Below, one piece after another: positions 25,059 through 28,000 of a stretch of 64,000 nucleotides of DNA. The stretch is from Microbotryum violaceum (lineage: Eukaryota), in NCBI GenBank assembly GCA_001244265.2, contig LN717261.1, positions 3,239,591 to 3,303,590 of the forward strand, given 5' to 3'. Each line of letters opens with the position of its first letter. Positions within the stretch are counted from its first letter, which is position 1. A program made the position numbers and the translations under genes. A model generated the notes under the pieces. The model did not search any database, was not told the origin of the DNA, and saw only the letters and a program-made list of their open reading frames with translations.

Positions 25059-28000
25059 TGTCGTTTGATATGTGTCTGTGCCTGTGGTATCTGCGCGGAT
25101 GCGCGTGCGTTTAGTCATTAGTCACTTTGGTATTGTAGTTTGATCTGTTTAAGTTAGGGAGCGCGCGGGGCTTTCTTCCAGCGCGGCTGTTTACTCTTGA
25201 TAGCTTTCTCATCACTCGCTCTACATTGTGGTCCTGACTTCTCGGCGTCGTGCACCCTCACCTATCGGAAGGTTAGTTACTGGAATACTTATTATCACTC
25301 GCTCTACATTGTGGTCCTGACTTCTCGGCGTCGTGCACCCTCACCTATCGGAAGGCTTTACTTCCGCGCTCGCATCTTTTCTGCGTTAGGTTATGAGTCC
25401 AACGGGTAGCGTAGGAGGCCCGGGTCAGCAAAGCGATTCACATCGCACCACCAACATCGGAATGGACACCGAAACACACTCTACCGAAACGAGTGAACGT
25501 GGATTACATGTCCCAATTCTTCGGGCAGCCAACTATATGGATTGGCGTCGACGTCTGATTGGTCGTCTTGGGTCCAAGGATTTGCATCTTTGCGCCTCGA
25601 GGCGGATGAGCCCGGCTGCGGAGGCTATTCTCCAAGCCGCAATCGACGATCGATCGCGTGGCTTCCACTCGCCCCTCGAGCGGCTCGACTTCGCAGCTAT
25701 GGACGCGAAGATCGCCAAGGAGCTAAAGAAGGAGGTTCGAACTCAAGCTGAAATCATTCAGTTTCTCGATGAGGCCAATCTTCGCTTGGTCAGGGGTTGT
25801 TACACGTCTTACGACATACTCGACTCGCTGAACACGTTCTACCTCGGAACGATGAGCGCTCAGATTTCCGCCTTGACGACTGAGCTCTACTCGCGCAAGT
25901 TCTCGTCTGGCGATCGTGGGCAGTTACTGCACCACTTGATCACCATTCATGGAATTTTGCAAGATCTTGAGGCGTGTGGCTCTGGGATGCCACCAGCTCA
26001 GCAATCGACGCTGATGCTCGATTCCGTCTTCGACTCGCAACACGAGTCGTTCACAAGCTCACTGCGTCGACCTCTGGCTCTACCTTCGGAGATTGTTTCC
26101 GAGGCACGGTCTTACCAGTTCAAAGTCTCGCTGGCAAGTCGAATCAATGGACTATCTGCCACGACTTCCGGACGCGCCATTGCTCAGTCGCCTGTTCCTG
26201 CGCTCGTTGCGCAAGGCGAATCGCAAAAGGGACCGCGTCGCAAAAGAGGTCACAAGAAAGGCAATCGCGACGGTCAAGGAAATCGCCGTCCTCCCGATTC
26301 TACCTGTCATGCGTGTGGAGCGAAGGGACACTGGTCTAGCGATGCAGTGTGCCCGGAAAACCGTTCAAAGTCATCTGCAGCCCCCGCGTTGGTTGCAATG
26401 AACTCCCATTCCCTTTACCTTGCTGGTTCTTCCTCGAGAGCTCCCGATACCGACTCCGTTTGGATCGCGGATACCGGAGCTGGTCACCACTTTGTTGGCG
26501 ATCGCTCGCTGCTCTCGGATTTTAAGGAATCCCCGATTCAAGTCCAGATGGCCGACAACTCGCTTGGTCAAGCCATTGGATACGGGCGAATGTCTGTTAA
26601 GACTTCGCAAGGTCACCTTCTCAAATTCAAGGAGATGTACTACCTCCCTGGATCGAGGTATGGTCTAATCTCAATGTCGTCGCTCCGCGCTGGAGGCGCG
26701 AAATTGGTTTATGGCCATGGGGGAGATACTCAACAGGTTTGGCTTGACGGCTCTCTCGTCGCCGAAACTGTCAAGACGAAGGCCAAACAACCAAGTTACG
26801 TCTTCGATTTTGAGATTGTCTCTCCACCCTCGCCTGTGCTCGTCGCATCTACCCGTGCTTCCGTTGGAGCTTCGCTCATGGAATGGCATCGGAACTTCGG
26901 ACACATGGCACCCTCTTCAATTCTTCAACTCGTCAAATCCAAGGCTATCGTTGGAATTCGTTTACTCGACAAGAAGATTGAAGACTGTGAGCCGTGCATT
27001 ATCGCGAAGGCGCGCGCGGGCTCTCACAATCATGTCAGTCGAAAACCCGAACTTGTTCTTCAACGGGTTTCGATTGATCTGGGATTCGTCAACGATGACG
27101 ATACCAATGGACGATCCATCTACATGGTTATCGTCGACCAACTTTCAACCTATAAGTGGGCTTTTCCACTTGGTTCGAAGTCGGCATCTGAAGTCCTCGA
27201 GGTCTGGCGGGGCTTTCAAGCGCAGGTCGAGAGGCAGTCCGGTCAGAAGATCAAGTTTGTTCGTTCTGACAATGGAGGCGAGTTCGTCAACCAACTCCTT
27301 GGCGGCGAATTCAAGGCACTTGGCATCACCCATGAACTGGCTGCACGCTACACGCCGCAGCAGAATGGTCAAGTGGAGCGCGCGAACGGCTCTCTCTTCG
27401 CGCTCGTCCGTGCCATGCTCAAGGACTCCGGACTTCCCAAGAAGTATTGGTTCTACGCATTGGAAGCGGCTGTTTTCGTTTCCAACCGCGGTCCTCACCC
27501 ACATCTCAAGGGCAAGACTGCGTTCGAGGTCTTCTTTGGCAAGCAACCCGACCTTTCGCATCTTCGCGCGTTCGGATCTACTGCCTACGTTCTCGTCCCC
27601 AAGGCGATTCGTAAGAAGCTCGATGACCATACTGTCAAGGGTACTTTCCTCGGCTATTCGGGGGAGTACAACTACAAGGTTCGCGTCGAACACGGTCGGT
27701 CTTTCAAGATCGTCGTCTCTTCCGATGTCACCTTCTCCGACAAGGCTCCTTCGATTGCGGACTCGGCTGTCGAGCCTCGCATCTACAAAGTTGAACCTCT
27801 ACAGGAACACGAGTTAGTACACCAACTACCGTTTCCTGGCTTGGAGCAGATTCCGGCTTTACGGCCTGCTCCCCTACCCGAGGCAGGTTTGGCTTTTCAG
27901 CCTGCGCTCTTTCCCGAGGCAGAAGTTCCGGCTTTACGGCCTGCGCTCGTACCCGAGCTTGGTCCGGCTTTTCGGCCAGCTCCCGCTCCTCTTCCTCGTT

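Follow-up and report, generated by a model that had tools for sequence, protein, structure and literature searches.

Introns located inside retroelement long terminal repeats (LTRs) have so far been represented by recent claims from plants, by human T-cell leukaemia virus type 1 (HTLV-1) and by the terminal repeats of Penelope-like elements. Here we describe a further candidate, found in a stretch of 64,000 nucleotides from the fungus Microbotryum violaceum (contig LN717261.1 of assembly GCA_001244265.2, positions 3,239,591 to 3,303,590 of the forward strand). This whole stretch is called the window, and its first nucleotide is position 1. In both LTRs of a copia element, termed family B, two copies of a short unit flank a spacer that begins with a donor-like GTTAGT, such that the spacer and the second copy together resemble a complete intron. 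What appears to be new is a candidate LTR intron whose 3′ half repeats the upstream exon, and which recurs across diverged copia families of one fungus. We favour, with a probability of about 0.5, a reading of the signals in the DNA in which this module would be a real short U2-type intron of the LTR leader in a copia clade, kept mainly via unspliced RNA, often collapsing, and with units that are occasionally homogenized by strand transfer.

Relationship to known systems

The original prediction for this locus, made from the sequence by a model, knew of no description of this kind. A literature search of open main texts, covering LTR introns, strong-stop DNA in combination with introns, and introns of Microbotryum copia elements, found no earlier description. 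The nearest parallel in placement is HTLV-1, for which the available portion of a preprint reports an intron in the LTR, its donor and acceptor both lying within LTR sequence (10.1101/2023.01.28.526022). However, HTLV-1 is a retrovirus and not a copia element, and that portion describes no duplicated exon copy within the intron. Penelope-like elements possess a pseudo-LTR (pLTR) that includes the start site of transcription (TSS) as well as a 75-bp intron in the 5′ untranslated region, and this intron is retained through retrotransposition according to the accessible part of the report (PMC8557442). These elements differ in having a GIY-YIG domain and a telomerase-like reverse transcriptase (RT) and in being target-primed, and the same part reports no flanking unit repeat. 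A domain search finds only copia-type domains in family B, which is therefore not a Penelope-like element, and the likeness is functional.

Introns inside the LTRs of maize retrotransposons are claimed by their authors, in the available text, as the first such evidence (10.64898/2026.05.08.723830). Those introns are long (mean 1303 bp) and belong to non-coding, LTR-only transcripts, whereas the candidate described here is a short, repeat-flanked leader intron. Split-intron retroviral vectors resemble the present case in that a splice donor placed in the 3′ LTR is transferred by RT to the 5′ LTR, which assembles an intron in the progeny (excerpt of PMC3182074, citing Ismail et al. 2000). As presented there, such vectors are engineered, and the intron is created once and without a duplicated unit. 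The review excerpt available for EVADE, which is copia-type, and for Ogre names both as intron-bearing LTR retrotransposons that keep functional introns (PMC12786077). In contrast to the module considered here, those introns yield subgenomic RNAs by alternative splicing, and the excerpt does not mention placement in an LTR.

Two further parallels concern the duplication itself. Introns can arise by tandem duplication of a segment bounded by AGG(T), the removal of which restores the unduplicated sequence (accessible parts of PMC3265369 and PMC4974935). By comparison, the copies in the LTR modules are split by a conserved, unique spacer of 11-22 nt that supplies donor positions +3 to +6, and the structure is old and evolves in concert. 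With this unique spacer between the copies, the LTR modules are not strictly tandem AGGT duplications. According to the available text of a review (PMC3187697), retroviral LTRs carry direct repeats of 50-75 bp that vary in copy number, which fits the polymorphism between one-unit and two-unit LTRs described below. The retroviral repeats differ in acting as U3 enhancers and in lacking splice signals.

An intron-like module in the LTRs of family B

The following features define the module in family B.

25059-25388, + strand: 5′ LTR, 330 bp (blastn match to the 3′ LTR, edges by direct reading)
25211-25271, + strand: unit 1, putative first exon or leader start, ending in AG (direct reading and blastn)
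25272-25354, + strand: candidate 83-nt intron, opening with the donor GTTAGT (25272-25277), followed by the remainder of the spacer (to 25293) and by unit 2, and ending in AAG
25294-25354, + strand: unit 2, identical to unit 1, with CTGAC at 25317-25321
25355-25388, + strand: U5-like LTR tail of 34 nt behind unit 2, also present in the 3′ LTR, where it ends at 30256
29927-30256, + strand: 3′ LTR (blastn and direct reading), with a copy of the candidate intron at 30140-30222

Direct reading and blastn place the predicted order of unit, terminal AG, GTTAGT, spacer and identical unit in both LTRs, which are 99.7% alike over 330/331 nt (blastn). The 3′ LTR carries the same pair of units at 30079-30139 and 30162-30222. 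The repeat had been given as a perfect 61 bp; the copies are indeed identical, and the identity comes to 62 nt because the G after the terminal AG is common to both. A 22-nt spacer containing AATAC exists as proposed (25272-25293), but GTTAGT lies inside this spacer and not ahead of it. A pattern scan bears out that the terminal AG of unit 2 is the first AG downstream of CTGAC, and the distance between unit 2 and the ATG of gag is 38 nt as proposed (25355-25392, ATG at 25393). An earlier account is corrected in one respect, in that the LTR extends a further 34 nt past unit 2 to reach 330 bp in all.

Unit 1 comes after a CT-rich tract, its start lying 2 nt ahead of a conserved CACTCG, and in the candidate intron CTGAC sits 34 nt before the acceptor AG. 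By its sequence signals the candidate is of the U2 type, with the junction AG/GTTAGT (the slash marks the exon-intron boundary), CTGAC, an acceptor AG and a host-typical length. The prediction that 25272-25354 holds the full set of signals of an 83-nt intron therefore describes a real anatomy, and its size and signals are within the range of host introns.

The same layout in other LTR families

Three further two-unit LTRs are present in the window.

23285-23445, + strand: module of a family A LTR, with one unit at 23285-23358, the second at 23372-23445 and an intron-like piece of 87 nt at 23359-23445
5774-6207, + strand: two-unit solo LTR of family F1, with target site duplication (TSD) GGTCT, a unit at 5956-6036 and an intron-like piece of 97 nt at 6037-6133
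6723-6867, + strand: decayed B-like two-unit LTR, with units at 6723-6785 and 6807-6867 and with CTCAGT replacing GTTAGT in the spacer

The comparison thus covers five two-unit LTRs, all within the window. Blastn and direct reading of the 64 kb find the layout of a unit ending in AG, GTTAGT, a spacer and a second unit ending in AG in three independent families (B, A and the F1 solo LTR) as well as in the one decayed copy. GTTAGT is located at 23359 in family A, where the intron-like piece also contains CTGAC and ends in TAG, and at 6037 in the F1 solo LTR.

Units within one LTR are 100% (B), 93% (A), 95% (F1 solo) and 76% (decayed B-like copy) identical, whereas identity between families is 42% for B and A and 25-28% for B and F1 or A and F1. 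Only three blocks of columns are common to every unit, namely an early CACTCG, a central YTGAC and the closing AG. The spacers behave differently. Those of family A and the F1 solo LTR are identical by eye at 14/16 positions, though their units do not align, and AG/GTTAGTT and AATAC are common by eye to the spacers of all three families. The unit repeat stops at AGG in family B and at AGGT in families A and F1. A conserved spacer thus contrasts with units that diverge between families yet stay alike within an LTR, which amounts to concerted evolution of the units around a constrained spacer core.

The differences between units of one LTR (23285-23445 and 5956-6133) are mostly changes from CpG to TpG or CpA, for example CACTCG versus CACTTG. 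Such changes fit the mutation resembling repeat-induced point mutation (RIP) that is reported for Microbotryum transposons.

Tandem repeats are frequent in the U3 region of retroviral LTRs, and the module might be a promoter or enhancer duplication in U3, with transcription starting downstream of unit 2. This would leave only 34 nt of LTR for R and U5 in family B, and in all families the unit comes right after a CT-rich tract and contains the conserved CACTCG. Even then the 3′ LTR would give a transcribed copy of the module, which could be spliced there. We consider a U3 duplication highly improbable.

Host introns and the intron-pattern test

Positions 1-44000 of the window consist of nested transposons, and host genes begin at about 45.3 kb (SNF2/RAD26-like, ribosomal L28e and ARMT1-like). 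At 45343-50335 lies the SNF2 gene, which shows 99% identity to a protein named MVLG_03703 of Microbotryum lychnidis-dioicae and so identifies the host as Microbotryum, and mapping the homologous protein on it gave 11 introns (8 by script and 3 by eye, the latter replacing 2 misfit rows). Their donors are GTGAGT (9/11), GTGCGT (1/11) and GTCAGT (1/11). Host introns are 59-107 nt long (10 of the 11 measured), and the LTR candidates are 83, 87 and 97 nt long.

A strict pattern was defined as exonic AG/GTNAGT, a YTRAY branch site, the next AG at 12-45 nt downstream of the branch A, and a total of 50-120 nt. There are six matches on the + strand and one on the - strand in 64 kb, versus 0.73 +/- 0.68 expected per strand from 30 Markov simulations. 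The matches comprise four LTR sites and three host introns, two of which are protein-confirmed introns of SNF2 and one an intron of the ARMT1-like gene. The strict pattern is insensitive, since it recovers only 2/11 SNF2 introns. A looser GTNNGT pattern was uninformative, with 43 and 61 matches versus 44.7 expected and with 4/9 known host introns recovered.

The ARMT1-like intron (60806-60876, - strand, 71 nt) is the seventh strict match; its donor is AAG/GTTAGT, its branch site CTAAC and its acceptor CAG. This intron links two open reading frames (ORFs) that match successive parts of an ARMT1-like domain (profile positions 165-197 and 194-247). All three strict matches outside LTRs are thus real introns, one of them with AAG/GTTAGT, and therefore the host does use GTTAGT. 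The sequence AGGTTAGT occurs at four sites on the + strand (6035, 23357, 25270 and 30138), each of which is the end of a unit 1, and at one site on the - strand, which is the ARMT1-like host intron.

One-unit relatives of the two-unit LTRs

LTRs with a single unit are also found in the window.

8145-12979, - strand: full F1 element with one-unit LTRs (8145-8481 and 12643-12979) and TSD AGAAG
24476-24755 (+ strand), 34071-34349 and 18590-18869 (- strand): one-unit LTRs of family C (blastn and direct reading)

The LTRs of the full F1 element and all three family C LTRs have a single unit and no spacer. Taking 6037-6133 (exactly 97 nt) out of the F1 solo LTR leaves a sequence that aligns with the one-unit F1 LTR without internal gaps and differs from it by 3 substitutions. 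The proposal that removal of the intron leaves exactly one unit is therefore borne out by natural one-unit LTRs that lack exactly the intron-sized piece. One-unit and two-unit F1 forms coexist at about 99% identity. A contig joint from 23322 to 23412, which skips 89 nt and occurs in two sequencing runs, is a weak hint of a one-unit family-A-like LTR in another organism.

The two LTRs of the full F1 element differ at 3 sites in 337 nt, and its coding region is split into ORFs of 212, 354 and 208 amino acids. The family C element that hosts family B is flanked by CACAT (24471-24475) and CAAGT (34350-34354), which is no matching 5-bp duplication. The family C solo LTR at 18590-18869 has CCCGA on both flanks.

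The coexistence of these nearly identical forms can also be accommodated without splicing. An R or leader duplication might be reshuffled by misaligned strand transfer, the AT-rich spacer being a 3′-end signal or some other cis signal and the likeness to an intron a by-product. The retroviral direct repeats of 50-75 bp discussed above set a precedent, as the available text of the review describes their deletion as frequent and precise (PMC3187697), and the conservation of the spacer exceeds the donor hexamer. However, the conserved core is exactly AG/GTTAGT at the repeat boundary in three families, and YTGAC as well as an AG-free stretch ahead of the terminal AG is preserved in units that are otherwise unalignable. 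Elsewhere the strict intron pattern matches only real host introns (3/3). Moreover, introns of this fungus are short and intron-defined, so that such a sequence in an RNA polymerase II transcript would be expected to be recognized. An origin of the intron-like features without any splicing is thus judged unlikely.

Sequencing-run contigs and RNA structure

Contigs of four sequencing runs act as DNA, in that they span nested-insertion junctions and an empty site. They break in the unit because the 62-nt repeat is longer than the assembly word. These contigs stop 30 nt into the unit, so the joint 25271/25355 is neither seen nor excludable in them, and a spliced junction is identical in sequence to one-unit DNA copies.

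The module region has no Rfam match at E<=1, and folding compared with shuffled sequences gave z = +2.06, -0.51 and +1.12, which is no folding signal. A structured-RNA reading is therefore unlikely. An origin of the unit from a small RNA was rejected on these grounds and because the window contains no tRNA gene. Two possible origins of the spacer were also considered. A relic primer-binding site (PBS) was rejected, since the spacer has only GGTTA in common with the PBS, and a diverged copy of the 22 nt ahead of unit 1 was unconvincing, with 10/22 (B) and 3/11 (A) matches by eye.

Structure and setting of the family B element

A domain search of the ORFs identifies family B as Ty1/copia, with the domain order gag, protease, integrase and RT.

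25393-28758, + strand: gag-protease-integrase ORF (Retrotran_gag_2, gag_pre-integrs, rve and SH3_retrovirus)
28386-29936, + strand: RT ORF in a different frame (RVT_2)
25054-25058 and 30257-30261, + strand: 5′ and 3′ copies of the TSD AAGAT (direct reading)
29920-29926, + strand: polypurine tract GGGGGAG, directly before the 3′ LTR
25389-25400, + strand: PBS GGTTATGAGTCC, a 12-mer also found at 24756 after the family C LTR

Family B is inserted into the gag gene of a family C copia element (LTRs at 24476-24755 and 34071-34349), and the gag frame of this interrupted host element picks up again after 30261. The gag ATG (25393) of family B falls within its PBS. The gag ORF likewise starts with an ATG inside the PBS in family C (24756-24767) and in F1 (about 12634, - strand). 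The presumed tRNA-iMet primer has the anticodon CAT, to which this ATG is complementary. Priming by the tRNA-iMet anticodon loop is reported for fungal copia elements in the accessible parts of the literature. No tRNA genes were found in the 64-kb window.

The gag-integrase and RT ORFs overlap by about 370 nt (28386-28758) in different frames, despite the 99.7% likeness of the LTRs. The overlap reflects either a mutation that shifted the frame or an error in the assembly. The coding region also contains two 64-nt direct repeats at 27851-27989 that are 78% alike and spaced 75 nt apart. Further repeat families with 2-4 copies each are found in the first 44 kb, for example at 1357-3709, 13978-16205, 38614-40959 and 41421-43746.

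Proposed mechanism and maintenance of the module

In the favoured reading, the candidate module sits in the transcribed 3′ part of the LTR of a Ty1/copia clade, and transcription would start at or near the start of unit 1. Unit 2 would contribute YTGAC as the branch site, a pyrimidine-rich stretch free of AG, and the AG of the acceptor. Some of the transcripts would lose the piece of 83-97 nt by splicing, and their leader would then have one unit, 38 nt ahead of the gag ATG. The two-unit LTR would be passed on mainly via unspliced RNA, as in other intron-bearing retroelements. One-unit LTRs would arise often, either from spliced RNA or when RT switches template from one unit to the other. A unit may be re-copied by an occasional strand transfer, which would keep the units alike over long times, but not in every cycle.

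Several observations weigh against this reading. The acceptor of family B is AAG rather than YAG, and T at donor position +3 is unusual because host donors are mostly GTGAGT, with GTTAGT in one further host intron only. Conservation of AATAC extends beyond the donor and is not needed by a plain intron. The donor would lie in the 5′ leader only if the TSS is not downstream of 25277. The module is not essential because one-unit LTRs flank an element with a TSD, with the caveat that the ORFs of this one-unit F1 element are broken. Finally, one-unit LTRs are equally explained by precise deletion of a direct repeat in reverse transcription. A 110-bp repeat was deleted in 41% of cycles, and precisely so, according to the available review text (PMC3187697). 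If RT deletes repeats this frequently, two-unit LTRs would therefore persist only through selection or re-copying.

The original prediction offered a stricter scheme, which began from the premise that an intron in R/U5 must be lost on retrotransposition. This premise is too strong, because a retroelement whose template is unspliced RNA retains its introns; EVADE and Ogre, named as intron-bearing in the review cited above, and the HTLV-1 LTR intron of the preprint are cases in point. In the scheme itself, the 5′ copy would always be spliced, and the 3′ copy would be cleaved inside unit 2 and remain unspliced. Minus-strand strong-stop DNA copied from the spliced leader would then land on the partial unit 2, so that each cycle would rebuild the intron and overwrite unit 2 by unit 1. 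The finding that units group by LTR and not by position across families is in keeping with such a cycle, as are the identity of the units in both B LTRs (62/62) and the exact end of the repeat at AG/G(T) in all families. In addition, the decayed B-like copy has states common to its two units that are found in neither B unit, and re-copying must therefore occur over longer times. The AT-rich spacer with its AATAC could also be a poly(A) signal just ahead of unit 2.

The F1 solo LTR speaks against a rebuilding of the intron in each cycle. Compared with its one-unit relatives, it shows 1 differing site in unit 1 and 3 in unit 2. There are 3 states in which unit 1 agrees with these relatives, and unit 2 retains CpGs that are also found in family C. 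Because 2 of the states of unit 2 are such CpGs, and hence look ancestral, the two units differed before insertion. The 3 changes in 81 nt compare with about 0.9% elsewhere in this LTR, for which a rough Poisson probability is about 0.04 if unit 2 had been identical at insertion. Thus, the predicted concerted evolution of the units stands, but their renewal in every cycle fits family B and not the F1 solo LTR. Furthermore, landing on a short, partial unit 2 would compete with landing on the full unit 1, and the scheme is unneeded for intron retention, since unspliced RNA can be the template. A strict cycle is accordingly regarded as quite improbable.

The spacer may have a part of its own in this scheme. 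The conserved AATAC beside the donor may be a 3′-end signal that splicing removes from the 5′ copy. In the full form of this idea, the spacer would combine a splice donor with a poly(A) signal, such that splicing strips the signal from the 5′ end, the signal at the 3′ end is used before the acceptor is reached, and strong-stop DNA rebuilds the intron. This combination is distinctly doubtful.

Implications

An immediate consequence concerns the annotation of transposable elements, where an intron-sized insertion or deletion between the one-unit and two-unit LTRs of one family could pass for separate subfamilies. If the LTR intron is confirmed, these copia families would constitute a natural system for learning how retroelements keep or lose introns. 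They would also offer a way to study the homogenization of repeats by strand transfer, and a test of whether splicing neutralizes the 5′ copy of a poly(A) signal. If the spacer does prove to be both donor and poly(A) signal, the element could ignore the poly(A) site at its 5′ end, and the module would withstand its own removal by splicing while its two units stayed alike.

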